Shown piece after piece: positions 10,609 through 31,647 of a stretch of 64,000 nt of DNA (positions within the stretch are counted from its first letter, which is position 1; every line of letters starts with the position of its first letter). The notes beneath the pieces were generated by a model, which made no database searches, was not told the DNA's origin, and saw only the letters and a program-made list of their open reading frames with translations. The stretch comes from a virus. Its lineage: Duplodnaviria > Caudoviricetes. The translations under genes and the position numbers were made by a program. The stretch is from positions 128,001 to 192,000 of the IMG/VR virus record IMGVR_UViG_3300029288_005873. One strand, given 5' to 3'.

Positions 10609-12294
10609 TCATTTCCTCGTGGACAGTTTATACAACTTGCTGCCTTGGGCAAACAACACATTTGTGCCGCATCGGCAAAGCATTCTTCCGCTTGGTACGG
10701 CAGGATCATCTATTATCTTTGTTTGGGATCCACCAGGCTTATTCTGGAATAGTTCAAGTCGCTCCTCTTCATCAATATGGGCGCAAATTCCAGATTCAAG
10801 TACGGTGAAGTTAAGACCTGTGTAGGACGCAATGTCCTTTGCCTCGCGAACAACATAGCTTGAGAAATCCGTTTGTAGGACAAACACCCACCTGCGATAG
10901 GATCCCTTTTTTGTTCCAACGGTCATAAGAATGCCATTGTCATATTTGGCATCAACCAGTTTCCATCCATCAAGTTCTTTTAGATGGAACTGGTAGCTTC
11001 TCCCCGGCAATGGAAATACCGAAGCATACCATGCCCCAAGCATATCTTGGACAACCACTCCGTCCAATACCATAGTGGCACTAGGCATCACATTTGCCAC
11101 TGGTTTCGCTGAAGCTTTGGAGGATCCATCCGGCATTCCAAGAAAAGAGATTTCGTATACATGGTCGCCAGATTTGAAATAGATCCTTCCATCATGAGCC
11201 ATCATTGATTCGGCTTTCATATGTAGATCTATTGATTTGTTTAGCTGTAGATCTCGCAGTTCAACCTTTCCTCCAGTAACCTCTGCAACAATCACTTGCT
11301 GTCTGGGACCCAAGCCGACGTGTGCCGAAGGCTTGATCCCCTTAAATAGTGTCCTATCCATTTGTAAACCATCAGCAGTGAACGCTAATCTGTGAGGACC
11401 AAGAGCTAGGAAACGAATAACATCTCGTTCAAACGACAAAAATTCAGCTATAGAGATCTGTCCAGATCCAGCTAGAATCTGCGTCTTTGGTGCTATGGCT
11501 GCAGAAATCCCAACGGCATCAGGGGGCAGGATTCTTTTCCCATCCTCAAGAACCGCTTTGTACCAAGCGCGAAGGCGATCGGGTATAGAATCCAATGGTG
11601 GACACATCTTTGGAATTGTGACCCCGTTGTTGAACACCGAAAGCCCCGCCCTCATACGCTCAACCATTCCTTTTACATTAGGATGAGTCCCCTTATATGG
11701 ATGTATTCCCATCCATAGCTGGAAAGTAACGACAGCAAATGAAAACCAGTCTGTCAGATCTGAGAAAGACTTAGCGTTCCAATCGCGGACGCTGTCCATG
11801 ATTGCTGTTGCTGGAAAACTCGGAGTCTGCCAGCTATCTACATCAATCCATGATACTTTCCTGAAAGACTTATCCGCTAGGAGGTTCATCTCATTCAGAT
11901 CTACAACCAGAATGTCTTTCTCATGAACATGAACAAGAACTTCTTGCATATTCCGAACCATGTCGGTAATCATGTCGATCGAAACACCATTGCGTTGTTT
12001 GAATGCTAGCGTAAAAACTTGACATAGTGCCGTAGCATTATCTACAAATCGCATCGAACATCCAACTGGTACTCCGCGCTCATCGAGCAGCACATCTTCT
12101 GGTCGCATTACCTCGGGACGCGAAATCTTAGCAAGCTCCTCGACTTTAGCTAAGGGAATCATATGAAGCCGATCGGTATAGATCTTGTATGAGATGCCAT
12201 CCTTAACATATACAGAAGCCTCACCACCTTGTGCTAGAAAATGACGTTTAGACAGCTCAACTGTTGTACCTTTGTTTTTGAGCCTGACTTTCAT
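10609..12294 (-). CDS. Ser/Thr protein kinase, YegI/TerY-P type, with beta-rich C-terminal domain
   Basis: AQGGEASVY, YKIY, VVDLNEMNLL, IDVDS, DWFSFAVVTFQLWMGIHPYKG. Confidence 0.85.
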   Translation of the reverse strand: MKVRLKNKGTTVELSKRHFLAQGGEASVYVKDGISYKIYTDRLHMIPLAKVEELAKISRPEVMRPEDVLLDERGVPVGCSMRFVDNATALCQVFTLAFKQRNGVSIDMITDMVRNMQEVLVHVHEKDILVVDLNEMNLLADKSFRKVSWIDVDSWQTPSFPATAIMDSVRDWNAKSFSDLTDWFSFAVVTFQLWMGIHPYKGTHPNVKGMVERMRAGLSVFNNGVTIPKMCPPLDSIPDRLRAWYKAVLEDGKRILPPDAVGISAAIAPKTQILAGSGQISIAEFLSFERDVIRFLALGPHRLAFTADGLQMDRTLFKGIKPSAHVGLGPRQQVIVAEVTGGKVELRDLQLNKSIDLHMKAESMMAHDGRIYFKSGDHVYEISFLGMPDGSSKASAKPVANVMPSATMVLDGVVVQDMLGAWYASVFPLPGRSYQFHLKELDGWKLVDAKYDNGILMTVGTKKGSYRRWVFVLQTDFSSYVVREAKDIASYTGLNFTVLESGICAHIDEEERLELFQNKPGGSQTKIIDDPAVPSGRMLCRCGTNVLFAQGSKLYKLSTRK

Positions 12295-12617
12295 TTCTCT
12301 TCCTTAAACACAAGCTCAAGTCTTGGTTTTGTAAAGAAAGGACACCACTTCGGCGGCATTTTACGCAAAAGTATATGACGACCTTTAACAGCTGGATGAT
12401 TACAGTCAAAGCATCCATCATGGGCAAAGAGCAAAGGACAATTTTTACATGATGAAATTGTTTCTTTATATGTTTTTTTACTCAACTTGGCAACCTTAGC
12501 AGCTCTAGATCTCTTTTCCTCGTCTTTACCCTCCTGCTTCAATGCTTCATCGCGCCTTCGCACAGAGCATATCATACAGAAGTTTGGATCGGTACAATGT
12601 TCACATTCTCCAAACAT
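12291..12617 (-). CDS. Cys-rich hypothetical protein
   Basis: CxxC pairs, PPKWCP. Confidence 0.6.
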   Translation of the reverse strand: MFGECEHCTDPNFCMICSVRRRDEALKQEGKDEEKRSRAAKVAKLSKKTYKETISSCKNCPLLFAHDGCFDCNHPAVKGRHILLRKMPPKWCPFFTKPRLELVFKEEK

Positions 12618-12620
12618 AGT

Positions 12621-12917
12621 TCACCCCAAGTCAGAAATCTTGTATGTGTCAATTCCAAATACTGAGAAAAACTCAAGATTTGACAGATGACACCATGTAA
12701 AATAACCGTCCTCCAACCACATAACTGCTACCGTATTTTCCTTTGGACGGCATGGAAGCTTTTCACCCTCTAGCCACCCAACAGCATGTCTGCGCAATTC
12801 TTCTGAGCTGCGGACAATATCACCAGTGCGGCACGCCCTACCTAATGCGGCAAATAATCCAAAGCGTCGCCATCGACTCCATGAGAAACTATCCCTCGGA
12901 AGTCTTGGAAGGTCCAT
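12621..12917 (-). CDS. Hypothetical protein
   Basis: ORF (open to 13052); start chosen to minimise overlap. Confidence 0.55.
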   Translation of the reverse strand: MDLPRLPRDSFSWSRWRRFGLFAALGRACRTGDIVRSSEELRRHAVGWLEGEKLPCRPKENTVAVMWLEDGYFTWCHLSNLEFFSVFGIDTYKISDLG

Positions 12918-13875
12918 GTAGATCTTCCCATTTATTATTGTAGTCAACAACACAGTCGATACAGTTTCCTTTACAAATTGGATCGTTATAAGTATCATGC
13001 GCATTAAACCACTCCAGTCTAGCCCTGCGCATAGATTCATCCATAGAACCAATAGGTTTGCCCTGCTCTCGCAGGTATATGATACAAGGAAAATGAAAAC
13101 TTCCAGCTACAGCTACATCGTCCAAAGCAATAGGACACCGTCTAGAGTCTTCTGATCCTATTCCCCTTATGTTTCTTCCAGATAACATATTTCCTATCCT
13201 ATACTTTAGAATAGGATATTTGTCCATAATATTTTGTGGTAGTTTAACCAGGCTTCCAACTGCCTTGTTCCATTGCGCCGAAGGAATGACCCTTATATCA
13301 TCGGGTCCAAGGCTGTCAATAAATAGAACAGTCTCCATTGCTGTTCCGGCATTAGCTTCTGTGAATACTGTTCCCACACTTACATAGGTAAGTTTTGCCA
13401 ATTCTTTTATTGTCTTGGCAGCTTTCTTCCAGGCACCAGGAACACCAGACATCACGTCTCCGACAGAGCAACAGCCAGCATCAAGAGATATAGAGAAGTC
13501 ATTCACCCCTAGTTTTATAAGCTTCATGTACCTACTAATCGACATGGTTCCATTTGTTGAGATAGCCACATGCTCCGCTCCGAAGTCCTTGGCAATCTTT
13601 ACAAACTCGCCAATGTTCGGGTGGAGCATCGGCTCTCCGCCGCTAAACCTGACGTTTCTCATACCCTCGTTAGCCCATATGGCAAGAGTTTTTTCTGCCG
13701 ACTTCAGATCCATGTCTTTATCAAATCCGTTCGGCAAGCCTCGACAATACGGACACCTAAGATTACAGCGCCCTGTGATAACCATTTCGCATCGATAAAG
13801 AGGAGATTTCCACGATGCCTTCATTACACGGCTATCTGATAGTGTATAGAATCCAATGGATTCAAGCGGTTTCAT
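12889..13875 (-). CDS. Radical SAM protein (MoaA-like core, C-terminal Cys cluster)
   Basis: CNLRCPYC, SGGEP, STNGT, ISLD; CxxxCxxC near the C-terminus. Confidence 0.9.
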   Translation of the reverse strand: MKPLESIGFYTLSDSRVMKASWKSPLYRCEMVITGRCNLRCPYCRGLPNGFDKDMDLKSAEKTLAIWANEGMRNVRFSGGEPMLHPNIGEFVKIAKDFGAEHVAISTNGTMSISRYMKLIKLGVNDFSISLDAGCCSVGDVMSGVPGAWKKAAKTIKELAKLTYVSVGTVFTEANAGTAMETVLFIDSLGPDDIRVIPSAQWNKAVGSLVKLPQNIMDKYPILKYRIGNMLSGRNIRGIGSEDSRRCPIALDDVAVAGSFHFPCIIYLREQGKPIGSMDESMRRARLEWFNAHDTYNDPICKGNCIDCVVDYNNKWEDLHGPSKTSEG

Positions 13876-14551
13876 CCTTGCCCTCCAGTGGCAAAAGCTC
13901 AAACTGATCTGGGATAATCTTAATTTTATCAGGATAAAAAATCAGATTTTGGGCAAAGCAGTTAGGACATTCGCCGGCATAATATCCGCCAAGAACTCCT
14001 GGGAGTTTACCCAGCTGGTCTTCTCTTCCTTCCCACCCACACTCGGTACAATGGAATTTCTGAAACCACTTCCATAAGGGCGAATGACCAGTAATCTCTT
14101 CCGGGATCTCAGCCTTTACTCCCTCTAGACGAGCTGCGAGTTTTGAACGAACAGCATCCCAAAACTCTAAACAACATCCAAGGGTAGCGTATCCATTGAT
14201 TGTGATACATCTATGAGCAAGATCTACCCCAGTCATGGTCAGTGGTTTTTCAAAATTCAATTCCCCTTTGCGATGATATCTTCCACTTCTTTTGTGCTTG
14301 GCGTAGCCAGCAGATTTTCCAGAGTAGTCGCATCGGTGAATGGATATGTATTTGAATACAAGTCTGCCTTTTGTTTCTGCTTCCCGCACAACCTCGGCTA
14401 TAAATCGTGCTTCAGAGGCATTGTTAACAACCGTCTCCAACGACTTGGCTTCCTTTGCCTCATTCACCTCAGCCTGTACTTCAGGTCTTACTTTTCCATC
14501 CAGTTGGATAAGTTCGTCTGCCGTAAGCTTTACGGAATAATATTCCTTCAT
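13862..14551 (-). CDS. Zn-ribbon hypothetical protein
   Basis: CTECGW...CPNC. Confidence 0.65.
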   Translation of the reverse strand: MKEYYSVKLTADELIQLDGKVRPEVQAEVNEAKEAKSLETVVNNASEARFIAEVVREAETKGRLVFKYISIHRCDYSGKSAGYAKHKRSGRYHRKGELNFEKPLTMTGVDLAHRCITINGYATLGCCLEFWDAVRSKLAARLEGVKAEIPEEITGHSPLWKWFQKFHCTECGWEGREDQLGKLPGVLGGYYAGECPNCFAQNLIFYPDKIKIIPDQFELLPLEGKDETA

Positions 14552-14553
14552 TT

Positions 14554-15375
14554 CTATTCAACGCTCCCTGGAGGCGGAACGCCTCCTTCCTCAAGTATCT
14601 CAGACAGTATAAGCAAAGAACGGACACTTGCTGATGACAGAAAACGTAGAATCTCTTCATGCGAGGCTGCCCTACATTGGTTGAAATTATCCGAGATGCT
14701 TCCCAATGTACCATCTGATTTCATGACAGTATACTTGTCGAACACATTACTACCAAAACCATGGACGCCATCAACAACAAAGCATATATCGCCCTCTTCA
14801 ATTCTGTGTCCAGAAACAGCTGGGACAAGAAATGTACCAGCAGGAAAACTGGTTTCTTCTTTGTCATTTGCTAGTATACTACAAAGTTCGGCAACTTTCT
14901 CAGAAGAAATTTTCACACCATATGGTGCGAGGAACTTATCAACCTTGTCTACGATGACGGGTTCAACATATCTATGGGAAGAAAGTGATACTAGATAATT
15001 CAACCTCAAAGCTAACCATTCCCTAAGCTCATACTTTATGGCTGGGAGAACGCGATGATATCCTACCGCTCTCCTAACCTCATTCGCCAATTCAACAACG
15101 TCCTTATCCTCAAACAGAACAGGAGGACAATTAACGAATGCGGATTTATCTAGATCAAGCATCATGTGCCAACGCGGAGGATTCCATGAAGGACATGTCA
15201 TATGAAGTGTGGCAACAGGAGATCGAAGATATCTACATATCTTTGGAATCCTCCAAACAATCTTTCCTCCGCAGGGTGTCTTGCCAACTAGATATAAGTC
15301 CGTCAAGACTTCAAAATTGTTTACCATGACACTGTACCAATATGGAATGTCACAACTTTTCCACATCCTGGGCAA
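14554..15375 (-). CDS. Hypothetical protein
   Basis: Long ORF; start uncertain. Confidence 0.6.
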   Translation of the reverse strand: MPRMWKSCDIPYWYSVMVNNFEVLTDLYLVGKTPCGGKIVWRIPKICRYLRSPVATLHMTCPSWNPPRWHMMLDLDKSAFVNCPPVLFEDKDVVELANEVRRAVGYHRVLPAIKYELREWLALRLNYLVSLSSHRYVEPVIVDKVDKFLAPYGVKISSEKVAELCSILANDKEETSFPAGTFLVPAVSGHRIEEGDICFVVDGVHGFGSNVFDKYTVMKSDGTLGSISDNFNQCRAASHEEILRFLSSASVRSLLILSEILEEGGVPPPGSVE

Positions 15376-15485
15376 GTGTGTTTATACGTACCTGGCTGAA
15401 GGGCAATGTGACCTGGAGGGTTATGTTCTGGGTGAAAACACAAAGATCTAGTCCACTTGATCTCTCTGATTTTTTTGATCCTCAT
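15321..15485 (-). CDS. Small Zn-binding protein (CxHPEHNPP...CPGCG)
   Basis: ATG overlaps upstream stop; Cys/His motif. Confidence 0.6.
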   Translation of the reverse strand: MRIKKIREIKWTRSLCFHPEHNPPGHIALQPGTYKHTCPGCGKVVTFHIGTVSW

Positions 15486-16210
15486 TTTTCTTTCCTTTTG
15501 CCGGTAGGTTTGGTTGTATCTAAATATGATCCCATAATCGAAGAAATAGCTTCTAGGCACCCATCTCGTTCCACCAATAGTTCTTTGACCAACTCAGAAT
15601 TCTCAGCTTCCGCAAGTGCCATAAGCCTATCGGCGGCAATCATATGTATGATGGATTGTCGCTCATCATTAGGTCCATCACCAGGCTGCCAACCGTATCC
15701 TATGGCGCCCCTTACCAGAGTTTCAACAATGACCCGTTCCGCTTCCTGTTCCCAATGAGATAATGGTCTTTTGTTGATCTTTCTCCCACGACACGGCTCC
15801 TCTTTCAACAACCTTCCCGCAAGACGATTGGAGACTTTTTTATCATATGGATAAGGCGTCTGAACAAATAATTTGGTGGCAAGATTCATTTTCTCCTTGC
15901 GCTTAAATCCACCCATCCAATGTTGCGATTCAAGATGTACCTCGACAATCGGCCACAATCCAATATCCTCGAAGGCAACCGCATAGAGGGCATGCCCCAT
16001 AGCGAAACACGGATGAAGCTCAAAAACTGTTGGCTTTTTCTTCTTATCCACTCTTTTCTCTCCAAACAAAGTTTTGGACAGTTTGACTGCCTCGGCAGCT
16101 TCCGATATTAAACGCCTGTGGTAACGGCGCAAAGTGCGGTCAGCTTCCTTACATATTTGTAAGTCACTCTGGCGATTTGCCATTAGACTATTCCTCCAGA
16201 AACTTATCAA
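15482..16210 (-). CDS. Hypothetical protein
   Basis: ORF; GGAGG before the MANRQ start. Confidence 0.65.
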   Translation of the reverse strand: MISFWRNSLMANRQSDLQICKEADRTLRRYHRRLISEAAEAVKLSKTLFGEKRVDKKKKPTVFELHPCFAMGHALYAVAFEDIGLWPIVEVHLESQHWMGGFKRKEKMNLATKLFVQTPYPYDKKVSNRLAGRLLKEEPCRGRKINKRPLSHWEQEAERVIVETLVRGAIGYGWQPGDGPNDERQSIIHMIAADRLMALAEAENSELVKELLVERDGCLEAISSIMGSYLDTTKPTGKRKEK

Positions 16211-16586
16211 GCATAAGGGTGAGATTCAGATTTTTCAAATATCCACATTGGCAGCTTTTTGGCTTATCCAGGTCAATAAGGAACCAGCCGTCATCTTTGG
16301 GATCTTGCTCAATAGAAAAGCCAATTCTTCTGCGCTTTCCTAGTGACCATTCGATGATGACCGCACCAAAGTCATCTTGGCTTGCCATCATTGGACAAGC
16401 TTCAGTTGGCAGTTTTTTACACGACATCAGAGAAACCTGAAGTGCGTCAAGAAGTTTGGACAGTCTTTCTGGAACTGATGATAGCCTCTTAGATAACCTG
16501 TCCACATTTTCTAGGATAACACCTATTGACTGACCTATCTGCTGAATATCCATTCTAAACTCCAATGATATATCAATTACTACCAA
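16188..16586 (-). CDS. Hypothetical protein
   Basis: ORF in gene run. Confidence 0.55.
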   Translation of the reverse strand: MVVIDISLEFRMDIQQIGQSIGVILENVDRLSKRLSSVPERLSKLLDALQVSLMSCKKLPTEACPMMASQDDFGAVIIEWSLGKRRRIGFSIEQDPKDDGWFLIDLDKPKSCQCGYLKNLNLTLMLDKFLEE

Positions 16587-16603
16587 ATGGAAAATATTAA
16601 TTA

Positions 16604-16945
16604 CTAAAATTTATCCCCCGGAAAAACCGGTCTGTCTACAGACTCCTGACGCAAGTGTGTTGTTATTTCAACATAGCCACAAGTCTTACAGATGCGTTTC
16701 CATCTCTTCTCGGTATGCGGAGGAATATCGCATGGTAGACGACGGTCAACACCCATTGTTCCTGGTGGATCGCCGGGGTCGTGATATCCAGAATGGTGAA
16801 TTGGGTCATAAATAGGATCACTCCAATTGTGGCGACAATTCTTCTCTATTTTAGAGATTGCCGCACGGAGTCTGGCAACTTCCTTTTCCGCCTCGGCAAG
16901 CTCAGCCAGCATGTTTTGACGTTCAAGATAGACAAGAGATGGCAT
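16604..16945 (-). CDS. Hypothetical protein (coiled coil plus CxxC)
   Basis: GGAGG RBS; CRHNW...CKTCG. Confidence 0.7.
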   Translation of the reverse strand: MPSLVYLERQNMLAELAEAEKEVARLRAAISKIEKNCRHNWSDPIYDPIHHSGYHDPGDPPGTMGVDRRLPCDIPPHTEKRWKRICKTCGYVEITTHLRQESVDRPVFPGDKF

Positions 16946-16956
16946 TATTCCTCCAA

Positions 16957-17817: not shown

Positions 17818-18185
17818 GGATTTAGCTCCATCTTTACCTGTTCGCCCATATTGTCTACCAGCATTTTCAACTGATCCATCTTCCAATTACCACTTAGATT
17901 AATGCGCACCTGTGCGTCTTCTAGCAAATTCTTAAGCATTCTTGGTAGTTTGTGAGCATCCATCCAAGCACACATGTTCGCTTTAATTAGGCTCTGTTCG
18001 CTTCCAGAACTTGCAAGAACCCATTCACCCCAACGTGGTAAGTAGACTCTTGCACACATGATAACCTCATATGTTCTATCAGCAGGTATTGTAGTTCCAC
18101 TGACTGCGGCAGCGCAAATACGACAAACAATGTCGAACAGGTTATCACATGTAAAAAATGGAACTGTCACATAATTTATATCCAT
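17814..18185 (-). CDS. Hypothetical protein
   Basis: ORF coupled to PP2C start (ATGA). Confidence 0.55.
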   Translation of the reverse strand: MDINYVTVPFFTCDNLFDIVCRICAAAVSGTTIPADRTYEVIMCARVYLPRWGEWVLASSGSEQSLIKANMCAWMDAHKLPRMLKNLLEDAQVRINLSGNWKMDQLKMLVDNMGEQVKMELNP

Positions 18186-18188
18186 TGA

Positions 18189-18371
18189 TCACCTGTAAGG
18201 ACCAGAAGACACTTCACGTTCCATGGTCCAGCACCAACTTCTTACTATTTGATTGCCAGCAGCAGCGCAAAAAACTACACGGAATCCTTCAGCAGCCCAT
18301 TGGGCTATCTGTTTTGCTGCTTCAGGAGAGTTCTCCGACCCCCATACGATTTTATATTCGTAATGATTCAT
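18189..18371 (-). CDS. Small hypothetical protein (YEYKIV...GFRVV)
   Basis: Short ORF, DUF4177-like pattern. Confidence 0.55.
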   Translation of the reverse strand: MNHYEYKIVWGSENSPEAAKQIAQWAAEGFRVVFCAAAGNQIVRSWCWTMEREVSSGPYR

Positions 18372-18379
18372 AGCCCACC

Positions 18380-18754
18380 CTAATTCAGAAAGTCTTTCGA
18401 TACATCGCGTCTCATGACGCGCTTCCTCTCCATCAAAATGCGTTCAAGCATCTCTCCATCCTCCTTGTTTAGGATGGGTAACCCGAAGCGTTCTACCAAC
18501 GCATCACTATATACAAGTAATAGTTCATTATCTGTAGACATGAAACTATCACTATTGAAGTCGTTTTCCTCCCAATGAGCAAGCGCAGAGGCATAAGCAT
18601 GCATTGCTGTCACATTCTCCATGTCAAAATGTAACGCGCCTCTTTCCTTCCAGTCTAGAATGCTATCAAGGAACTCCTCGATCTCGGACATCTTATCCAA
18701 AGATTTTCTATCCATTGTATTCTCCGTTAATCCAGTCCCTTGAGGATCATCCAA
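18380..18754 (-). CDS. Hypothetical protein
   Basis: ORF in gene run. Confidence 0.6.
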   Translation of the reverse strand: MDDPQGTGLTENTMDRKSLDKMSEIEEFLDSILDWKERGALHFDMENVTAMHAYASALAHWEENDFNSDSFMSTDNELLLVYSDALVERFGLPILNKEDGEMLERILMERKRVMRRDVSKDFLN

Positions 18755-18993: not shown

Positions 18994-19157
18994 TCTTGTG
19001 GATTCGATATAATAGATGCCTTTAGGCGCTCAAACATATTCTTCTTTGATGGAAGGGAGGACTAGGAACATTTGTCGAAACCGGCTCCAGCGTCTCTAGA
19101 CGCTCTAAAGCGGCAGCAAGATTATCGCGGTATGCGTCTGGCTTTTGTATAATTGGT

Positions 19158-19586: not shown

Positions 19587-20134
19587 ATTTCTGCTTTCTG
19601 ACTGTGGATTTTTAGATATTGAATAGCCATCTCCAGCAATTCTATTGAGTCCTCAAACCAGCCAAGACCTAGATTACAGCGACCACAAAGAAGTCCACGA
19701 TTCTCGCCCGTTTTATGGTTGTGATCCACAGCAAGTTTCTTGGATCCTGGTTCCTTGTGACATACGGCACATTTGTAATCTTGCTTTCTTTCTAGTTCGC
19801 GATATTGTTCCAAACTTATGCCAAATTTCTTTCGCAGATCGGCATCTTTGTAGTAGTCTGGATTTCTGTAATATCGAGCCTTTGCTTTCTCTTTATGGCA
19901 TATCGCACAATAAATTGAAATTCCATATTTGGTATGTGTATCTTTTAGGAATTCTCCGATTGTTTTTATCTTATCGCATTTAGGGCAATATGATTTGCCT
20001 TCTTTGATTAGCCGTTCTCTACGTTTGAGCGGCTTTGCTGTTGAGCCGTGTCTTCTTTGTCTATTGTAATGTTTAGAACACAGTCCATTCTCAAATACCT
20101 TATTGTCACAACCTTCTACACTACAATTATCCAT
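19583..20134 (-). CDS. Endonuclease VII-like HNH (probable homing endonuclease)
   Basis: CSVEGC...LCSKHY zinc module; CAVC...LAVDHNHKTGENRGLLCGRCNLGLG. Confidence 0.88.
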   Translation of the reverse strand: MDNCSVEGCDNKVFENGLCSKHYNRQRRHGSTAKPLKRRERLIKEGKSYCPKCDKIKTIGEFLKDTHTKYGISIYCAICHKEKAKARYYRNPDYYKDADLRKKFGISLEQYRELERKQDYKCAVCHKEPGSKKLAVDHNHKTGENRGLLCGRCNLGLGWFEDSIELLEMAIQYLKIHSQKAEM

Positions 20135-20146
20135 ATGTCCACTAAT

Positions 20147-21010
20147 CTACATTCCTTTTTTTGTTTTGATGTACTGCTTCCACAACTGGGCAGATTTTCT
20201 ACCAATCACAGTATCGATATCACGACCTTCTGTAATCTCTCCCTTTGCTTCTTTTCTTATGTCCTTAATCATAGCTTTCACGATTTCACCAGTATGCTCT
20301 ATTCCATTAGCATAAGGCAGATCTTGAAGTATGTGCGCCAACCTCATTGGCACTACCCATTCATCGGCAATTTCCTGAGCCTTCGTCATTACTTCCAGTT
20401 TCGCAGGATCTGATACCTTTGGTACATGTGCGCGTTCTGAAAACTCTTCTCGCTTGTGCTTACATATAATACGCTCACCGTTATTCATTACCACTTCAAT
20501 AGGTGGTCGAAGAACAACGCCCTCACGTTTGTGACCGGGTCCCATGCCATTACGCACAGCTTGAACGGAATCGGAGTCGCGCTCGGCGTCTATGGCAGCG
20601 AGGTCCGTTGGGATCTCGACATAGTGAACAAACTCTAAACCAAGGTCGCTTGCGACCTTTTCTGCCTTGGGAACAGAGAGCCAGGATTCCTCAACCCGAA
20701 CATCGAACACAATAAACTTAAGGTTCGGACCGTAGGTATGGGACATTCCCTGCTGTTTACCGCCATAGGCCTCGCCGTGGATGCGGACCTTCATGTCACC
20801 AAAGTTGTCTGTGAAAATCGCAGTAAGCTTCTCCTGATCGAACAAGGATACGAACTTCTCGTGCTTCTCGCCGCCAGAGAAGAATCCCAACTGCCCGTTA
20901 TTCCAGGAGAGGTGTGCACTAGTTCCGTGACACTTCTCCATTGCGTAACACCTCTTGAACAAAAGAATTTCTTGAGCCTTGTACAGCAAAGGAATATCCA
21001 TGTATCCCAT
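20147..21010 (-). CDS. ATP-dependent RNA ligase (Rnl2-like) 1
   Basis: EKCHGTS (motif I), HGEAYG, VFDV, EGVVLRP, CKHK. Confidence 0.85.
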   Translation of the reverse strand: MGYMDIPLLYKAQEILLFKRCYAMEKCHGTSAHLSWNNGQLGFFSGGEKHEKFVSLFDQEKLTAIFTDNFGDMKVRIHGEAYGGKQQGMSHTYGPNLKFIVFDVRVEESWLSVPKAEKVASDLGLEFVHYVEIPTDLAAIDAERDSDSVQAVRNGMGPGHKREGVVLRPPIEVVMNNGERIICKHKREEFSERAHVPKVSDPAKLEVMTKAQEIADEWVVPMRLAHILQDLPYANGIEHTGEIVKAMIKDIRKEAKGEITEGRDIDTVIGRKSAQLWKQYIKTKKGM

Positions 21011-21071
21011 TTTTTATTCTCCGTCGGATATTTTCTATCAATATCCTAGCATTATAGCAATGGAGGTTGCC

Positions 21072-21812
21072 ATGCTAGGACACATCATGACCAAGGAAAC
21101 CCTGGACCAACTCTATGTGATCGAGAAACTTTCGGTTGCTGCGGTTGCTAGGAAACTTCACACCACAACGACTACGGTTAGGAAATATCTCAAATTCCAC
21201 AACATCCCATTCAGGGACAACCCGGCCCAGCCCAAAGATATTACAGGATATAGATTCGACCGCTTGGTGGCTCTACACCCAGCATCCCCCGACAGATTCG
21301 GCAAAAGTCGCTGGCATTGCGCCTGTGATTGTGGCAGGACGGTCGAGATCAACTATTCGTCTTTGGCATATGGTCTCACGACCTCCTGCGGGTGCCGCAA
21401 GATTGAACTATGTAGGCGAGGCGGATACAAAGATATATCTCGCGCTTGGTGGCGCAGGATGGTCAAGAATGCCGCTATGCGTGGATACGAGTTCAGTGTG
21501 ACACCGGAAGATGTCTGGGGCATCTATGAGCAGCAGGGAAAGCGATGCGCCCTCACCAATCTTCTTGTAGGATTCTTTCCCGATTCCAACCAAATGTACC
21601 GCCAGACCGCCTCGCTCGACCGTATCGATAGCAGCCTTGGCTATGTCAAGGGGAACATCCAAATCGTCCACAAGGTCGTCAACCAGATGAAAAGTTACCT
21701 TACGGATGAGGAGTTCGTAGCATTCTGTAACGAGGTAGCGCGCAGCCATCCAATGGATCACGACGCCTGCCTAGTTGCAACCTCGCGGACAATTATGCGC
21801 AAGGTTACTTAA
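21072..21812 (+). CDS. HNH-like homing endonuclease
   Basis: GGAGG RBS; WHCACDCG...TSCGC; CALT...SLDRIDSSLGYVKGNIQIVHKVVNQMK. Confidence 0.85.
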   Translation: MLGHIMTKETLDQLYVIEKLSVAAVARKLHTTTTTVRKYLKFHNIPFRDNPAQPKDITGYRFDRLVALHPASPDRFGKSRWHCACDCGRTVEINYSSLAYGLTTSCGCRKIELCRRGGYKDISRAWWRRMVKNAAMRGYEFSVTPEDVWGIYEQQGKRCALTNLLVGFFPDSNQMYRQTASLDRIDSSLGYVKGNIQIVHKVVNQMKSYLTDEEFVAFCNEVARSHPMDHDACLVATSRTIMRKVT

Positions 21813-22045
21813 TCTACTGGCGGATCAAGTTGGTCCGTATTCCCTACGCTTTCTCCAAGCCATTCAATCCAATAGTCGAACTCCTCCTGATTGATGTCTG
21901 GCGCCAACTTGCGCATCTCTCCGATTATCCACGCATTGCTGCTGCTTGGACACATTGCTTTTATACCACGGAACATTCCAGCAAATTCTCCCTCACGTAA
22001 CGCATCTAGTACGGCGTTTGCCTGGTTTTGCATTGGCGTTCCCAT
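21809..22045 (-). CDS. Hypothetical protein
   Basis: ORF in gene run. Confidence 0.55.
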   Translation of the reverse strand: MGTPMQNQANAVLDALREGEFAGMFRGIKAMCPSSSNAWIIGEMRKLAPDINQEEFDYWIEWLGESVGNTDQLDPPVD

Positions 22046-22638
22046 TATGATCGTCCCTTCCTCTCAGCAATTAGATTAGCCAGAGTTTCCTCATAGTATG
22101 AACGCAGATCTACTCCCAACGGAGGATCTTTAATATTGCCTTTCCTGAGTTCCATACGATAGGAATAATATGCCCCACACAATTCAGCAAGCTTAGTCTC
22201 GAAAAAGGAGAGCCAATCTCCGATAGGTTTCTGGACAAACTCAAAAGGGTCTTCCTTAAAATAAGACCCCGTGCCATATAAATCTTTTCGTTGTTTTAGA
22301 CATTCGTCCCAAGATTTTGGAGTACGAGTCGCTTTGGATCGTTCTACCGTATCGGAACATTTGTGCGCAGCATCAATGACCTCAACGGCAAACAAATCAG
22401 ATTCATCGCAATCCAAAGCAATGAATTCATCCACATATGTACTCCATACAGCCCATTTGCCGTTTGGCTGCCTTACAAAACAATGTCCCATGTTATTTTC
22501 CTTTGTGTTTGTATGGATCCAATCCAGTACGTTTACAAAGCCTTGTGTAAAGCCCTGCGACAATCCTATTTGCTTTGGCTTGATCGCCAACGACCCAGAA
22601 TCCTCTATCTGGAAAAATGCCACCAAATCCCTCGACAT
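22045..22638 (-). CDS. Hypothetical protein (VRQPNGKWAVWST)
   Basis: ORF; likely start MGHCF near 22491. Confidence 0.6.
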   Translation of the reverse strand: MSRDLVAFFQIEDSGSLAIKPKQIGLSQGFTQGFVNVLDWIHTNTKENNMGHCFVRQPNGKWAVWSTYVDEFIALDCDESDLFAVEVIDAAHKCSDTVERSKATRTPKSWDECLKQRKDLYGTGSYFKEDPFEFVQKPIGDWLSFFETKLAELCGAYYSYRMELRKGNIKDPPLGVDLRSYYEETLANLIAERKGRS

Positions 22639-22888
22639 GGCGAATTATATGCTCGATTTCGACGTCAGTCAGAATTGGTTCAATCTTTTCTTTGATTTCC
22701 AAACCCACATGTATGGGATTGTCGTCCTTAACTTCAATTTCTATTACACCTTTAGTCATGTTGAAGGAAACTTTAGCTTCGTGATTGCCAACACAATCTT
22801 CTGCCCTGATCAGCTCATCAATCAATCCACGCAAAGTTCCCATACTCAATCCTCGTCCAGGTGATCGCTTCCACATCTGGGACAACAT
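22493..22888 (-). CDS. Hypothetical protein
   Basis: ORF in gene run. Confidence 0.5.
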   Translation of the reverse strand: MLSQMWKRSPGRGLSMGTLRGLIDELIRAEDCVGNHEAKVSFNMTKGVIEIEVKDDNPIHVGLEIKEKIEPILTDVEIEHIIRHVEGFGGIFPDRGFWVVGDQAKANRIVAGLYTRLCKRTGLDPYKHKGK

Positions 22889-23271
22889 GCGCCCCTCACA
22901 TCTTCATGACGCATAAACTTCATCCCCCTAATTTCCTCAGCAGCATTCTCACAAGCTTGCGCAATGACTTCACGCCAAGAGATTTTGCCTTTATGAGATT
23001 CTACTTCTACAATATCTAGCTTAGCAAAATCCAACAAGACATGTTCCCAGTCTCTCAATGATTTTAATGGATTATAGTCCTTGCTCCAGTAATCATCTTG
23101 TTCCCAACCACAATTCCGACAAAACAAAAACATCGGCGCTCCTTTATTTTGGTGGCTCGGGCAACCCAAAAAGAAAACCTGGATTGTTGCCCTCTTCATC
23201 AGAAGACAATGCGCACTCGTACCGCCTACCATCCTTCTCAAAGACAATGGCAGTAAATCCTTCACCGTCAT
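22846..23271 (-). CDS. Zn-ribbon protein (CRNCGWEQDDYW...CPRCG)
   Basis: Likely start MFLFC near 23133 after AAGGAG. Confidence 0.6.
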   Translation of the reverse strand: MTVKDLLPLSLRRMVGGTSAHCLLMKRATIQVFFLGCPSHQNKGAPMFLFCRNCGWEQDDYWSKDYNPLKSLRDWEHVLLDFAKLDIVEVESHKGKISWREVIAQACENAAEEIRGMKFMRHEDVRGACCPRCGSDHLDED

Positions 23272-23347
23272 CCTTGATCTCTATGACCACACAACCAATT
23301 AGTGGCTTAAGATAATGCTTCATGAAATCATGATTTGGATGACTCAT
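23144..23347 (-). CDS. Small hypothetical protein (DEEGNNPGFL)
   Basis: Short ORF. Confidence 0.6.
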   Translation of the reverse strand: MSHPNHDFMKHYLKPLIGCVVIEIKDDGEGFTAIVFEKDGRRYECALSSDEEGNNPGFLFGLPEPPK

Positions 23348-23744
23348 TTTTCACCTGCTTTTCATATCTAAGTTCCATACAGCCAGGTTCCATTTTGCGT
23401 TTTCGCGAATGCCATTTTGGACCACGATTTCTACGTATAAGCTGCTGGATTTCACACCAAGTACTGTAGGCTTCTTTCTCATGTTCCATATCGGAACGCT
23501 TGTCTAGTATATATGCTTCAATGTGCCATGCTTCTTTAGCATGAGGACATGAAAACTTATCATATACTAGACCATCTATATCATGAATGCTGCGTTCTAC
23601 AACACATTCGGAATCGCACACCTCGCACAGGCGTATCTCGATTTCTCCTGGGCGACGAAAGAATGTATCGTAATCCAGTTCGGGCATTCTACTTCTCCTC
23701 TGTATCTCGAAGTTTTTTACAATATTCCAGGAACTGCTTGTCAT
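23328..23744 (-). CDS. Zn-binding protein, paralog of 23952-24443
   Basis: PG...CEVCDSECVVER...DKFSCPH....WH. Confidence 0.65.
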   Translation of the reverse strand: MTSSSWNIVKNFEIQRRSRMPELDYDTFFRRPGEIEIRLCEVCDSECVVERSIHDIDGLVYDKFSCPHAKEAWHIEAYILDKRSDMEHEKEAYSTWCEIQQLIRRNRGPKWHSRKRKMEPGCMELRYEKQVKNESSKS

Positions 23745-23970
23745 CCAGAACCTGGAATGAGAGTTCTTTTTCCATGTTCAGACCATCTACAAAAAAATCA
23801 TTTGACAAGTCGTGGCGATTGGGAGTACCTAGGGCTGACGCCAAACGTCGAATTAAACCCACAGCTTCATCACGAGTCATGGTTACAATGGTGCGTACAT
23901 TCTCGGCAAAGAATGCTCCGTAATCCTTTCTCATTGTTACTTTTTCTGTGATCATGATCTTTTCACCCAC
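23689..23970 (-). CDS. Hypothetical protein
   Basis: ORF in gene run. Confidence 0.5.
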   Translation of the reverse strand: MGEKIMITEKVTMRKDYGAFFAENVRTIVTMTRDEAVGLIRRLASALGTPNRHDLSNDFFVDGLNMEKELSFQVLDDKQFLEYCKKLRDTEEK

Positions 23971-24443
23971 TTACATGTTGACTTGTGAGAGCAAGGTTCT
24001 TTACTATTACATCCGCTTCTCCAAGGTTTATAAGACGCACATTCCTCCTTGCCACAATTAGGACATATCTGCTCATATACAATGTCAAATACAGTTCCAC
24101 AATTCGAACATGTATTTAAGCTATCATCTACAAGCTCGTCAAGATCTGCTTCAATTAGAGCTCGTAGTCGTTTGCTTTCAGTTCCACGCATCTCATTGAT
24201 TAACTTGGTAGCGCGTCTATGCCATTCCAACCCATAATATGGACAAGCAAAAGTATCATGAGGATGCCCTCGCCCAGCCACCGATTCAGCCCAACTGGTT
24301 GGACCATTATGTCCCCTAGTAACTAAACATATGGCACCACATACGCCACACATTTTCTGTTCGTCATCTGGTACAGAACCAGGATCGCCGAATGACATTC
24401 CACCACATCTTGATTTGCCGAGGTACCCGAATTCGTTCCTCAT
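23952..24443 (-). CDS. Zn-binding protein, paralog of 23328-23744
   Basis: PG...CGVCGAICLVTR...DTFACPY....WH plus extra CxxC. Confidence 0.7.
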   Translation of the reverse strand: MRNEFGYLGKSRCGGMSFGDPGSVPDDEQKMCGVCGAICLVTRGHNGPTSWAESVAGRGHPHDTFACPYYGLEWHRRATKLINEMRGTESKRLRALIEADLDELVDDSLNTCSNCGTVFDIVYEQICPNCGKEECASYKPWRSGCNSKEPCSHKSTCKWVKRS

Positions 24444-24844
24444 TTTCCCTCCAATCGTTTCTCACACCTCAGGAGAGCCTGTGCTAACGCCCTTTCATCA
24501 CAAGGCGGAATGTCGTTAAGATTCATATTCTCACGACATTTGATTCTGTCTTTCTTGAATAATTCATACAAATCTGCCATCTCTGGATTCTTTTTCAAAC
24601 CATTATCAGCAGGGTCCCAGAAACAAGGGAATCCCCCACTTCCCTCGCATGCATCGCGCCCATAGCAGAAACATTTTATCTGCCACAATGAACCCATGGC
24701 AAGACATTTCTTCATTGAATCCGATACCTCTACAGATGTATCTGCTGCTGTCACAATCGCATCACCACCACTACAGTATGTAAGAAATACTAAAACACTA
24801 GTGATAATAAGGAACTCTGCGCCGTTAACTATTTCATTTCTCAT
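24440..24844 (-). CDS. Secreted or membrane Cys-rich protein
   Basis: N-terminal hydrophobic segment, multiple Cys. Confidence 0.55.
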   Translation of the reverse strand: MRNEIVNGAEFLIITSVLVFLTYCSGGDAIVTAADTSVEVSDSMKKCLAMGSLWQIKCFCYGRDACEGSGGFPCFWDPADNGLKKNPEMADLYELFKKDRIKCRENMNLNDIPPCDERALAQALLRCEKRLEGK

Positions 24845-25325
24845 TGTTTTCCTGGTTGTCAGTGATCACCATTTCAACAGCCCTACTCCATGCTTCATCA
24901 AGATCGTTGTCCGTCCAGTTATCGCAAAAGCCAGATCGTCGCATAAAATTCCTGACCGACATTCCCTCCCTCCAATGAACAGGATGAGGAACACGTGTGT
25001 GAAACACAGGAGACACTGTACCATATTCTAATAGACATTTGGTGAAAAACGCAATTCCGTTATCACCCAACCAAGCCCGAAGGGATTCAACCAACGGTTT
25101 TGGAATATCCTTTCCCATGCCTTCCTCCACGTTCGTCATCCAAAATTCACACCAGCCCGTCTTCTTCGTCGGCTTTATAAGCTTGTGGCACCATTCGTCA
25201 CTGGAATGATAAACACATCCGTCGCAATGACCAAGACATCCGAACGGATAAGATGGATTCTGAACACTTTTTAAGCTAGGATTTTGGCGCCACCGTACTG
25301 ATAGTCTCGTCATTTGTGTCTCCAA
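24834..25325 (-). CDS. Hypothetical protein (PHPVHWREGMSVRN)
   Basis: ORF in gene run. Confidence 0.65.
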   Translation of the reverse strand: METQMTRLSVRWRQNPSLKSVQNPSYPFGCLGHCDGCVYHSSDEWCHKLIKPTKKTGWCEFWMTNVEEGMGKDIPKPLVESLRAWLGDNGIAFFTKCLLEYGTVSPVFHTRVPHPVHWREGMSVRNFMRRSGFCDNWTDNDLDEAWSRAVEMVITDNQENNEK

Positions 25326-25342
25326 AATTCCAATATCTGGTC

Positions 25343-25711
25343 TTAATCACCTGGTTTTTCATCTCCGCGCAACTCAATAATTGCGTCAATTAACTCTTTT
25401 GGTACCAAAGATTCATCAAGATGAATACGAAAACCGAAAGGTGGACCAATAGGGCGACCACCTGGACCTAGCAAATGACAATGAGCAATAGCATCAGTAC
25501 GATAATCTCCAAACCGATTTACTGGTCTAGCTACGAGAAGTTTAGCAAAAGGTTTGGGATTTTGGGCAGGTGGGTCGGTTTTAAGACGGAAAGGAGGTTG
25601 TCTAATCAACAGGAGTTCGAATGAGTCTGACCCAGAGAATGATTTGTATACCTGTACGCGCGCTTCACGAACGATGTATACAGACATTACCTCCTGAATA
25701 GTTGACATCAT
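25343..25711 (-). CDS. Hypothetical protein
   Basis: ORF in gene run. Confidence 0.55.
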   Translation of the reverse strand: MMSTIQEVMSVYIVREARVQVYKSFSGSDSFELLLIRQPPFRLKTDPPAQNPKPFAKLLVARPVNRFGDYRTDAIAHCHLLGPGGRPIGPPFGFRIHLDESLVPKELIDAIIELRGDEKPGD

Positions 25712-25715
25712 TATT

Positions 25716-26105
25716 CTATTCCTTATCGGTCAATATGACGTATTCCATCATTGGAGGAAGTTCATAGATTCCAGATCCTTCGAATGTCTGGAATTCAACA
25801 TCTCGTAGATGAAAACGCTCCCCATCAACTATAACAAATATGGTTCCTTGATCGAACTCGAAACGGATTCCACGCTCCTCCATAAGGGCAAACATCTCCT
25901 CGAGGCGTTTGCGGGCGGGATGGTTGGGTTTTAGCCTAAAGGTTTTCATTTTTTGTATATCCTCATACTCGTCCAAAAAAGAAAGGTCTATTCTCTGCGC
26001 TTCCCTATACCATTTGTTTGTGGACATGTACCACCAATGACGTGGACCATGTTGCCAAAGCCAACGCAACCACCCAAGGAAAGTTGTACCCTTCATAGGA
26101 GGCAT
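25716..26105 (-). CDS. Hypothetical protein
   Basis: ORF in gene run. Confidence 0.55.
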   Translation of the reverse strand: MPPMKGTTFLGWLRWLWQHGPRHWWYMSTNKWYREAQRIDLSFLDEYEDIQKMKTFRLKPNHPARKRLEEMFALMEERGIRFEFDQGTIFVIVDGERFHLRDVEFQTFEGSGIYELPPMMEYVILTDKE

Positions 26106-26108
26106 TGC

Positions 26109-26345
26109 TTAACTCCGTTTGTTTCTTTTTTTGCGAGTTTGCGGGGGCGGCGATTGGAGCAAGGTTACCTGCCGTATTTCAAATTTCCCAAGCACTATAA
26201 GCTGTAGAGATTTTGTGTCCGTAGGACACAGCATCCGACCAGTATGGATTGCCGACGTCTCCGATTCAAATGGTCCCATCCACCCACCTCGCCCATCTTC
26301 AATCCAGAAGCCTATAGGGGGAGCACTCGTGATTATGGGCTTCAT
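26109..26345 (-). CDS. Hypothetical protein
   Basis: ORF coupled to vWA stop. Confidence 0.55.
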   Translation of the reverse strand: MKPIITSAPPIGFWIEDGRGGWMGPFESETSAIHTGRMLCPTDTKSLQLIVLGKFEIRQVTLLQSPPPQTRKKRNKRS

Positions 26346-27100
26346 TAGATGTTTAGGGAAACTGGAGCAGAACCGCCGCCTGTTCCGAGCGACTGGCTCT
26401 GTGCGGAGATGGATTTGCTTACGAATTCCGCCAGCTTAGCAAGTGTCTTCGCATCGGTTTTCTCTACCTCAACAAACTGGGTTAGACCAGCACCGTTCTT
26501 GAACTTATCAAGATATGACGACACCTGAGGATCACCCTTAGTGCCCACACCAATCAGAACTGTAACCAAGCTCTCCAAAGACTCGGTCTTCAAGGCTGCT
26601 TTGAGCGCCTTACCAACATCCTTCTCAGTACCCTTGGATTGATTATCACATCCATCGGTCAGGAAAAAGCACACGGAGTTCACACCAAAGTCATTCTCTG
26701 ATAGCTTTTTGGCGTAGTCCGTTTGAGCAAGAATAGAATTCTCGGCAGCATCATATAGAGCTGTCATACCCCCAACTCTAAGAACACCGTTGTAATCTCC
26801 AATATTACAACTCTCCAGGAGCTTGTATCCATGGATTTCATCCAGACCATCAGCAAACGTCACAAGCCGAATCATCAGATTGTCAGCACGTGGCGACATC
26901 TTACAAGCCTGAACAATCTGCTGAATAGCCTTCTCCAGGTCATCTTTATACGTTGCCACCGAACCGCTGACGTCAACAACCAAATCAACAAGGGTGTATT
27001 CCGTCGCACCCAAGTCCTCTAGTTTCGCCGCCGAATATCCAAAGCTACCGGTTGGTAGCGCATGTTCCTCAAGATCATTCTTCAGTTTTGGCATTGCCAT
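26345..27100 (-). CDS. vWA-domain protein (TerY-like)
   Basis: MIDAS DVSGS, GGMTALYDA, FLTDG; AAGGAG RBS. Confidence 0.88.
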   Translation of the reverse strand: MAMPKLKNDLEEHALPTGSFGYSAAKLEDLGATEYTLVDLVVDVSGSVATYKDDLEKAIQQIVQACKMSPRADNLMIRLVTFADGLDEIHGYKLLESCNIGDYNGVLRVGGMTALYDAAENSILAQTDYAKKLSENDFGVNSVCFFLTDGCDNQSKGTEKDVGKALKAALKTESLESLVTVLIGVGTKGDPQVSSYLDKFKNGAGLTQFVEVEKTDAKTLAKLAEFVSKSISAQSQSLGTGGGSAPVSLNI

Positions 27101-27297
27101 TCTCCTTATTGAAATGAAGCACCATGAGTGAATCATCCATATACATTCCATCGATGTCCGGTATAAATCCAGCGGTTTTCAGCGCGATTTCAATAGCCTT
27201 CATCACACTGTCTGGTCCATCAATGATTACCCATCCAGCTTTTTTCTACTATAACAGATCCCCCGAATTTAGTGACAACACGTACTGTTATCATATT

Positions 27298-28113
27298 CTA
27301 AACTAGGAAATCTTTCGTTGTCGACAGCTGCATTCCGCGACTTGTCATCTCCTTGACGAAAGCATCCTGGAAATGCTCAAATCCAGTGACTGGACTGGTG
27401 GCATCCGTGAGCAGCACCATCTTTGCCACAAACTTATCGTCGCCGAACTCAGTAGCGATATCGCGAACAGTATTCGCAAGACAATGCGAACCAGCTTCAC
27501 CAGCGATAGCAAGGACGTCAGCTTCCATCAGCGTCTGAATTAGGCGCGTATTAACATGGGTCGATGGATCGTCGGGGTCTGGAACCTCAGCCTTGATTGC
27601 CGAATAATGCTCTGTGTAGATGTTAGAACCCTTAGACACAAAGTCCACAACGGCAAAATTCTTCCTCTTCCACTCACACAAGGCAGAAAAGAGTTCTGGA
27701 ACAACGGCATTTCCAGGACTACCAATTAGACAGTGGGGTGGCCAGATACATAGTGGATACTTGCCACTACTCTCCAGAGACTTGGTGTATACAATCATGC
27801 GTCTGGTTAAACTCGGCATCACGGGAGACCACCGACCGTTTTCAATTTCAGTACTAGTGATAATCGTAAAGGGCGCAGGATAATTACCTTTGGAATCTTT
27901 CCACATAACTGGATGTGCCACATCCACGAGATGATGACAATCCAAAGTAACATGGATATCATCAAGTTTGCTACCCAATCTCCGAATAAGAGCTGGTAGT
28001 CGAACATTCATATCCTCCCATGCTCCTTGTACAGGTAGTGCCCCTTTTGGATCGCAGAAATCGTGTTGTGGATCAATTACTAGCAAATGAACTTTTTTAA
28101 TGTTATTGCTCAT
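27298..28113 (-). CDS. pncA: Nicotinamidase/isochorismatase-family cysteine hydrolase
   Basis: IDPQHDF, GAL, TLDCH, WPPHC, KG, YSA, GEAGSHC (catalytic Cys). Confidence 0.85.
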   Translation of the reverse strand: MSNNIKKVHLLVIDPQHDFCDPKGALPVQGAWEDMNVRLPALIRRLGSKLDDIHVTLDCHHLVDVAHPVMWKDSKGNYPAPFTIITSTEIENGRWSPVMPSLTRRMIVYTKSLESSGKYPLCIWPPHCLIGSPGNAVVPELFSALCEWKRKNFAVVDFVSKGSNIYTEHYSAIKAEVPDPDDPSTHVNTRLIQTLMEADVLAIAGEAGSHCLANTVRDIATEFGDDKFVAKMVLLTDATSPVTGFEHFQDAFVKEMTSRGMQLSTTKDFLV

Positions 28114-31638: not shown

Positions 31639-31647
31639 CGCTTCCTC

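Follow-up and report, generated by a model that had tools for sequence, protein, structure and literature searches.

What does a protein-phosphorylation switch do beside a nicotinamidase in the genome of a huge phage? Triads of a von Willebrand factor A (vWA) protein, a phosphatase and a kinase that resemble the TerY-P system are widespread and, to our knowledge, their output has never been assigned. Such a triad lies in the stretch analyzed here, a 64,000-nucleotide window (bases 128001-192000, about 44% G+C) of the 441,904-bp single virus record IMGVR_UViG_3300029288_005873, which has a CheckV completeness of 100%; almost all genes of the window are on the minus strand. Four genes, encoding in transcription order a PncA-type nicotinamidase (N), a vWA protein (V), a PP2C-family phosphatase (P) and a YegI-type kinase (K), together span 17.5 kb, with about 30 genes inserted among them. 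The explanation that we favor, and consider probable, is that these four genes are one co-inherited module that couples a nicotinamidase to a reversible Ser/Thr phosphorylation switch within a Preiss-Handler toolkit for the salvage of nicotinamide adenine dinucleotide (NAD). As parts of the same explanation, we think it rather likely that the module is native to the NrtR-linked pncA...pncB operons of bacteria and was acquired by huge phages, and that its split layout probably arose as unrelated phage genes were inserted, time after time, at two junctions of an operon that had been contiguous.

Relatives of the cassette came from a scan seeded with alignments, in which each prokaryotic species was represented by one genome; it returned 80 kinase loci and 80 nicotinamidase loci, whereas a scan of prokaryotic genome contigs with the single kinase sequence returned nothing. 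N was located upstream of K in 49 of the 53 kinase-seeded bacterial loci that had at least 3.2 kb of upstream sequence, and among the 57 nicotinamidase-seeded loci whose downstream sequence reached 4.5 kb or more, 41 had V, P or K. Complete cassettes had a median span of 4.39 kb (n = 52), and contiguous four-gene copies were observed in about 50 bacterial loci from several phyla. The co-oriented order V-P-K was shared by the window and about 100 related loci, with most bacterial loci keeping it; variants without P (N-V-K) and N-V alone exist. For P, tblastn maps were more reliable than a census of stop-to-stop open reading frames (ORFs) with hidden Markov models, which undercounted PP2C because of ORF overlaps. 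Carriers included Armatimonadota and Acidobacteriota (with complete chromosomes of 3.8-6.2 Mb among these two), Myxococcota, Desulfobacterales, Thiotrichales, Spirochaetota and lineages of the candidate phyla radiation, as well as one cultured strain, Bradyrhizobium embrapense SEMIA 6208 (L168).

The bacterial neighborhoods connected the cassette with NAD salvage. The ORFs around the first 91 loci, which comprised phage loci and kinase-seeded bacterial ones, were clustered and the recurrent ORFs scanned; a nicotinate phosphoribosyltransferase (NAPRTase/PncB) was a neighbor in 22 of these loci, an NrtR or Nudix protein stood upstream of N in 19, and glutamine-dependent NAD synthase (NadE) was another recurrent neighbor. 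With R for NrtR, B for PncB, E for NadE and M for a methyltransferase-domain protein, typical bacterial layouts were R-N-V-P-K-M and N-V-P-K-B. The layout N-V-B-(E)-P-K was found in two phages, L006 and L008, where pncB lies between V and P (accompanied by nadE in L006), and in the contig-borne locus L056. In two Armatimonadota genomes, the sole PncB of the genome adjoins the cassette. Because the bacterial copies lie between NrtR and PncB or NadE, the cassette looks like a NAD-salvage control module. In some loci (L112, L122 and L170), pncB comes directly after N and the triad is missing, and the triad is thus best seen as an optional insert in a pncA-pncB operon. In Acidobacteriota, K is recurrently followed by a fifth gene, for a protein of ~660-790 residues with an N-terminal S-adenosylmethionine (SAM)-methyltransferase domain and an unassigned remainder (L012 1588-3957 and 18 other loci; not in the window), which could be a target or an extra output of the switch.

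In the kinase phylogeny, bacterial copies grouped largely by taxonomy (Armatimonadota, Acidobacteriota, Desulfobacterales, Thiotrichales), while phage copies formed a few lineages rather than one clade, with that of phage L002 nested among bacterial copies. This topology suggests long residence in bacteria with few transfers between bacteria and phages. These comparisons bear on several proposals of the initial annotation. An ancestral four-gene operon split by insertions is strongly supported, since the genes are contiguous not only in bacteria but also in phages (L003, L004 and L010), and the proposed link to NAD or nicotinamide status proved stronger than claimed, with NrtR, PncB and NadE as recurrent neighbors. 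The further idea that a TerY-P stress or anti-phage module had been repurposed was not supported, as the bacterial cassette already resides in NAD-salvage operons and its kinase tree tracks taxonomy. Two very long contigs in bacterial bins also bear the cassette: L013 (JAWLHY010000011.1, 320,667 bp, an Armatimonadota bin) and L056 (CALFYV010000090.1, 546,147 bp, a Bacteriovoracaceae bin), the latter of which has a phage-like V-B-E-P-K arrangement and a kinase that branches with phage copies. Both may be huge-phage genomes binned as bacteria.

Single-sequence Pfam support was strong only for P, and N, V and K were therefore each examined by further methods. N fell below the cut-offs of both Pfam (Isochorismatase PF00857, E = 6e-4, 20.3 bits versus a cut-off of 27) and NCBIfam (pncA equivalog NF008623, 4e-6, 26.8 bits versus 174), and thus represents a divergent PncA subfamily; its relative in L003 barely cleared PF00857 (28.7 bits). 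A family profile of 21 relatives matched nicotinamidases only in the PDB, with yeast Pnc1 as the best (2h0r, 4.7e-12), followed by those of Mycobacterium tuberculosis (PncA) and Pyrococcus (PncA) and two more. The triad D14/K161/C211 is invariant in the 21 relatives, window copy included, as are the Asp-His-His metal ligands D58/H60/H127, and the alignment to yeast Pnc1 spans both blocks; the WPxHC (here WPPHC), KG and xYSA motifs are kept. Compared with solved nicotinamidases, N has an insertion of about 55 residues, profile positions 70-119 being unmatched. The residue before the catalytic Lys has a Thr consensus in 92% of triad-linked copies, is Ser in the window copy and is variable in triad-less copies; it is one of two positions that discriminate the groups, in a comparison with just 11 triad-less sequences, and we regard this triad-linked Ser/Thr as a weak lead rather than evidence. 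A structure-based prediction of binding between N and V gave a score of 0.00 with controls not run, and was counted neither for nor against binding.

V had only a marginal single-sequence match to Pfam VWA_2 (6e-3), and neither its sequence profile nor that of P matched a solved structure; for V, a fold search was needed. Its AlphaFold model has a vWA fold (pLDDT, the predicted local distance difference test, 87; predicted template modeling score, pTM, 0.86) whose top PDB matches were without exception vWA or integrin I domains, among them BatB from bacteria and ArnB from archaea (8s05_B). The metal ion-dependent adhesion site (MIDAS) has D43, S47, T113 and D149 invariant and S45 nearly so, and in the conserved Ser-rich C-terminal tail S228, S230 and S235 are invariant; relatives are about 247 aa long. 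The ORF of V is open upstream to 27151, which would give 268 aa. P matched PP2C_2 from its single sequence, with invariant metal-binding Asp motifs (D18, D35-G36, G118-D119-G120, D216-G217 and D273-D274); an alternative TTG start at 17886, in place of the ATG at 17817, would give 309 aa.

K matched Pfam Pkinase only at 1e-3 as a single sequence. Alignment with hhalign to the kinase domain of E. coli YegI gave a probability of 98% (E = 2.4e-13, about 300 columns), and the two share the motif GGEG and the unusual motifs IDxDS and HPY. Across 28 relatives, G23, G24, K37, E53, D132, N137 and D151 are invariant. The model (pLDDT 89) places the kinase domain in residues 1-260 and folds the C-terminal 289 residues (273-561) as an all-beta propeller of about seven blades; its best matches were LRRK2, which combines a kinase with WD40 repeats, and assorted propellers. 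More than 1,600 members of the kinase family were found in metagenomes. A copy of the propeller that stands alone (TM-score 0.92 over 285 residues) makes up its own, mostly viral, cluster of 365-aa proteins, and the sensing domain may thus also circulate with no kinase attached. Judged by these invariant catalytic residues, which the window copy retains, all four proteins look active. The initial annotation had placed the four genes correctly on the minus strand, with catalytic residues intact in all, and had assigned them correctly, including the YegI-type IDxDS and HPY motifs of the kinase.

The cassette was compared with 12 other phage loci, comprising LR756500 (L003), LR756511, LR745208, seven contigs of IMG/VR and, found via the kinase, two close relatives (L001-L010, L174 and L175; L005 and L007 are near-identical). 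Gene order and strand N-V-P-K were kept in all 12, with L174 ending before the positions of N and V and thus contributing P and K only; such an order is not a matter of chance. Cassette spans ranged from about 4 to 12.5 kb, making the 17.5 kb of the window the widest spread observed. The four genes are contiguous in LR756500 (L003 17670-21686), where Pfam confirms the isochorismatase, PP2C and kinase, and in the IMG/VR phages L004 and L010. The V-P junction is the chief insertion site across phages and N-V is nearly always unbroken; in the window, the V-P gap is 8.46 kb with about 22 ORFs and the P-K gap 4.66 kb with 7-8. In the two close relatives L174 and L175, whose K is 78% and 74% identical, most intervening genes are common with gains and losses (the radical SAM gene, for example, is in L174 and missing from L175), which indicates that the stretched layout is ancestral to this phage subgroup and continues to change. 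Conservation in L175 is highest for the pair N and V (85% and 89% identity, versus 67% for P and 74% for K). A search of the 17.5-kb region against GenBank phages at the nucleotide level gave no match, and relatives were detected at the protein level only; the closest GenBank records, seen by protein comparison only, come from three huge phages (462-595 kb) that are uncultured and carry no annotation.

Inserted genes were considered as possible module members and rejected, since no distant relative has them and even close relatives differ in which of them they carry. Four had identifiable Pfam domains (Table 1), the remaining ORFs of the first block being orphans and the other ORFs of the second block unidentified, and a PHROG search with nine small ORFs of the first block gave no matches. 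A scan of the 10-29 kb interval found promoter counts at the level of shuffled sequence and no convincing terminators between cassette members. Genes for endonuclease VII-domain and LAGLIDADG proteins (the endonuclease VII of block 1, a LAGLIDADG endonuclease at window 32618-33403, and L175 1716-2345, reverse strand) lie within or beside the insertion blocks and are differently placed in close relatives; the turnover of genes between cassette members may be driven by mobile nucleases.

Outside the cassette, the phage encodes the other steps of a Preiss-Handler route. PncB and NadE exceeded their NCBIfam cut-offs, and the NadD-like protein scored slightly below its own (TIGR00482, 7e-29, 101 bits versus a cut-off of 112) with a match to PF01467, which renders this step probable, not certain. 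A PARP with WGR, regulatory and catalytic domains, which consumes NAD+, is encoded close to the genes of a Nudix hydrolase, an ATP-dependent DNA ligase and PncB in what amounts to an NAD-consuming and -recycling neighborhood, and a macrodomain protein is encoded elsewhere outside the cassette. The Nudix gene is the only one found in this phage and had no match to the NrtR winged helix. From their sequences, N, PncB, the NadD-like protein and NadE thus make up a probable nicotinamide-to-NAD+ route, accompanied by NAD+ consumers and scattered over about 100 kb.

Table 1. Cassette genes, insertion blocks and other features of the phage (window coordinates unless stated otherwise)
Feature	Position	Strand	Basis or remark
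N, PncA-type nicotinamidase, 271 aa; opens the cassette	27298..28113	-	Catalytic and metal residues; profile versus PDB
V, vWA protein, complete MIDAS, Ser-rich C-terminal tail, 251 aa (ATG at 27100)	26345..27100	-	Model; conservation
Insertion block 1, about 22 co-oriented ORFs	17818..26344	-	Pfam and PHROG search
P, PP2C-family Ser/Thr phosphatase, 286 aa	16957..17817	-	PP2C_2 1.8e-14; Asp motifs
Insertion block 2, 7-8 co-oriented ORFs	12295..16956	-	Pfam
K, YegI-type Ser/Thr kinase with beta-propeller, 561 aa	10609..12294	-	hhalign to YegI; model
Zinc-ribbon protein (block 1)	23952-24443	-	Pfam
RNA ligase, RNA-ligase family (block 1)	20147-21010	-	Pfam
Endonuclease VII (block 1)	19583-20134	-	Pfam
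Radical SAM enzyme (block 2)	12889-13902	-	Pfam
NadD-like nicotinate-nucleotide adenylyltransferase, N-terminal extension (outside cassette)	56668..57519	-	NCBIfam TIGR00482; PF01467
PncB	genome 108970-110316		TIGR01513, 406 bits versus cut-off 297
NadE	genome 81666-82568		TIGR00552, 74 bits versus cut-off 64
WGR-PARP	G000:C1:101955-103430 (L092 5956-7431)	-	WGR, PARP regulatory and catalytic domains
Nudix hydrolase	L092 2755-3477		Near PARP
RlaP	7979-8878	-	RNA-repair nucleotidyltransferase
Nucleoside 2-deoxyribosyltransferase-like protein	9857-10423	-	
RNA-ligase-family protein	28866-29474	-	
DnaJ-domain/Hanks-kinase fusion	34531-35535	-	Pkinase 2.6e-31; DnaJ 3e-12

Further genes surround the cassette. 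RlaP and a nucleoside 2-deoxyribosyltransferase-like protein are encoded near K, and RNA-ligase-family proteins occur both within the first insertion block and beyond N. RlaP is near the kinase in the window and also in bacterial L011, where PcfJ, RlaP and RtcB follow it, and this repeated proximity may not be chance. Just upstream of the cassette, a gene fusing a DnaJ domain to a Hanks-type kinase is accompanied, within 30652-33403, by three genes also on the minus strand (31648-32640, 30652-31638 and 32618-33403), which encode the LAGLIDADG endonuclease already mentioned (the last of these), a 330-aa protein without a Pfam match and a short pyruvate-kinase-barrel protein; this group may be a second, unrelated phosphorylation module.

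Several known systems share parts of this organization. TerY-P, as summarized in PMC11090510 from Anantharaman, Iyer and Aravind (2012), is a triad of a TerY-like vWA protein, a PP2C and a Ser/Thr kinase, and the same summary cites Gao et al. (2020) for TerY-P-like modules acting as stand-alone defense. The cassette has the same vWA-PP2C-kinase architecture and order, a MIDAS-bearing vWA and active-looking enzymes. However, TerY-P kinases end in a zinc ribbon (classic) or an OB fold (defense version; PMC11090510), whereas K ends in a beta-propeller and has neither; a nicotinamidase is a fixed fourth member here; and the context is NAD salvage rather than Ter, restriction or CoCoNuT loci. PADLOC models, those for TerY and PP2C among them, gave no match to the four window proteins (E ≤ 0.01), and bacterial copies of the cassette reached E = 0.017 at best with the PADLOC PP2C model; these narrow models also miss E. 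coli YegL, PphC and YegI, which makes the negative weak evidence. In E. coli, the order YegL-PphC (YegK)-YegI is identical, as the initial annotation had stated, and the kinase domain is clearly homologous. Similarity was weak for V against YegL (hhalign probability 21%, E = 1e-3) and P against PphC (70%, 4e-5), and the E. coli locus has no nicotinamidase. YegI, the nearest characterized kinase, is an experimentally active Ser/Thr kinase and has membrane helices (bioRxiv 10.1101/819920) where K has its propeller. Given the different kinase C terminus, the weak vWA and PP2C similarities and the lack of PADLOC matches, we describe the cassette as TerY-P-like in build, not as a member of the defense family to which the initial annotation had assigned it.

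On the metabolic side, the NrtR-regulated pncA-pncB (salvage I) operons described by Rodionov et al. (2008, PMC2330246) contain no gene for a vWA protein, a PP2C or a kinase. Bacterial relatives of the cassette similarly have NrtR upstream of N and PncB or NadE downstream, but N belongs to a distinct PncA subfamily and the window has neither NrtR nor pncB adjacent. The NAD-jumbo phages (Microbiome 2024, PMC11662467) are likewise huge phages with a full NAD+ route (here PncA, PncB, NadD-like and NadE) plus PARP; their route genes are clustered, in contrast to the scattered ones of this phage, and neither a kinase or phosphatase nor a von Willebrand protein is mentioned in their description. Archaeal ArnB is a vWA protein regulated by kinases and a phosphatase (PMC7472852), and as in the scheme proposed below its interactions are under Ser/Thr phosphorylation control. 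The likeness is one of analogy only, as ArnA/ArnB involves an FHA partner and a motility-regulon output and has no NAD link. We found no paper that describes a nicotinamidase-vWA-PP2C-kinase cassette, with the 2012 Ter-system paper lying outside this comparison. TerY-P-like triads, NrtR salvage operons and NAD-jumbo phages were each already known; what we have not found described is a protein-phosphorylation switch tied to NAD recycling.

How might such a switch work? N would deamidate nicotinamide released when NAD+ is cleaved, be it by NAD-cleaving host defenses or by the PARP of the phage itself, and the product would feed PncB, the NadD-like enzyme and NadE. K would write a phospho-mark, with its beta-propeller as the likely sensing or docking (input) domain, and P would erase it. 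V may serve as a phospho-regulated adaptor or substrate, its Ser-rich tail being a candidate acceptor, and the triad would in this way set the timing or strength of the nicotinamidase step. Which way control runs, where the phosphate is accepted and what signal is sensed are all inferred here. A more specific proposal, which we hold to be rather improbable, is that the triad is a checkpoint that detects NAD+ cleavage and switches the nicotinamidase on or off by phosphorylation, forming a regulated deamidating NAD+ reconstitution pathway of bacteria and huge phages. The signal would then be a breakdown product or an activated NADase read by the propeller of K, and phosphate would be accepted by the tail of V or by the Ser/Thr that immediately precedes the catalytic Lys in N.

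Several observations weigh against a salvage module under phosphorylation control. Action of the triad on the nicotinamidase or on salvage is something we infer, and nicotinamide is the putative substrate of N on the strength of its motifs and profile matches. The carrier bacterial genomes that were checked hold 2-15 further isochorismatase-family genes, such that N is not proven to be their housekeeping nicotinamidase; no clear second PncA was seen among these genes in the three Armatimonadota carriers. No NrtR gene adjoins N in the window and pncB is about 45 kb distant. Conserved order in phages is no proof of continued co-regulation here, as insertions alone preserve order. The bacterial copy L011 stands beside AAA_21, PcfJ, RlaP and RtcB, a setting like a mobile or defense island. 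This last point would also suit a conflict system, with the triad as a sensor of infection or of a rival element and the nicotinamidase as an effector that removes nicotinamide to starve the Nampt- or NARP-type NAD+ rebuilding of competitors or to relieve nicotinamide feedback on NAD-cleaving enzymes; it would act as anti-phage defense in bacteria and as counter-defense or phage exclusion on a phage. The architecture and kinase domain resemble TerY-P and YegL-PphC-YegI, TerY-P-like defense is reported in the summary of PMC11090510, and the cassette does move between bacteria and phages. Yet the dominant neighbors are NrtR, PncB and NadE rather than defense genes, the kinase phylogeny follows bacterial taxonomy, the PADLOC models went unmatched (a weak point, as noted), and the product yields NAD+ for a phage that has PncB, a NadD-like enzyme and NadE, an outcome more in keeping with recycling than with destruction. 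We therefore view a conflict system as an unlikely explanation; the cassette may nevertheless have a counter-defense or inter-phage role, as proposed in the initial annotation.

Less likely again is that the four genes are uncoupled in this phage, their order a passive remnant of an operon, with the kinase and phosphatase serving general takeover signaling and the nicotinamidase working alone. The 13 kb of unrelated genes between members would agree with this, as would the survival of order through insertions without selection and the presence of at least one other phage kinase, the DnaJ fusion, which implies that phosphorylation is used more widely. Against it, wherever another phage locus spans the full region (11 loci), all four genes are kept with catalytic residues intact, and N and V are the pair best conserved in L175. 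Retention of four genes with intact active sites amid heavy turnover is a stronger argument for the module than order. We consider it very unlikely that N is instead a triad-controlled amidase for another pyridine or nucleobase amide, such as an NAD-derived signal or a modified base. Its scores below the Pfam and NCBIfam cut-offs and its long insertion leave some room for this, but every PDB match of the family profile is a nicotinamidase, N retains the motifs together with the D-K-C triad and the D-H-H metal site, and it is paired directly with pncB in loci without the triad.

If the four genes do form a NAD-salvage module, a TerY-P-like triad is tied to a defined enzyme in a defined pathway, which offers a testable biochemical read-out, and the large kinase family and a cultured carrier, B. 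embrapense, make experiments feasible. Should the triad prove to be a checkpoint for NAD+ cleavage, a TerY-P-like switch would for the first time have a metabolic output assigned to it. The window adds the most dispersed copy of the cassette and a phage that has the whole Preiss-Handler route in scattered form, and its split layout illustrates how far a phage operon can stretch by gene insertion with every member kept. For phage biology, a regulated Preiss-Handler route would join the strategies by which huge phages rebuild NAD+, of relevance against the bacterial immunity that depletes it.

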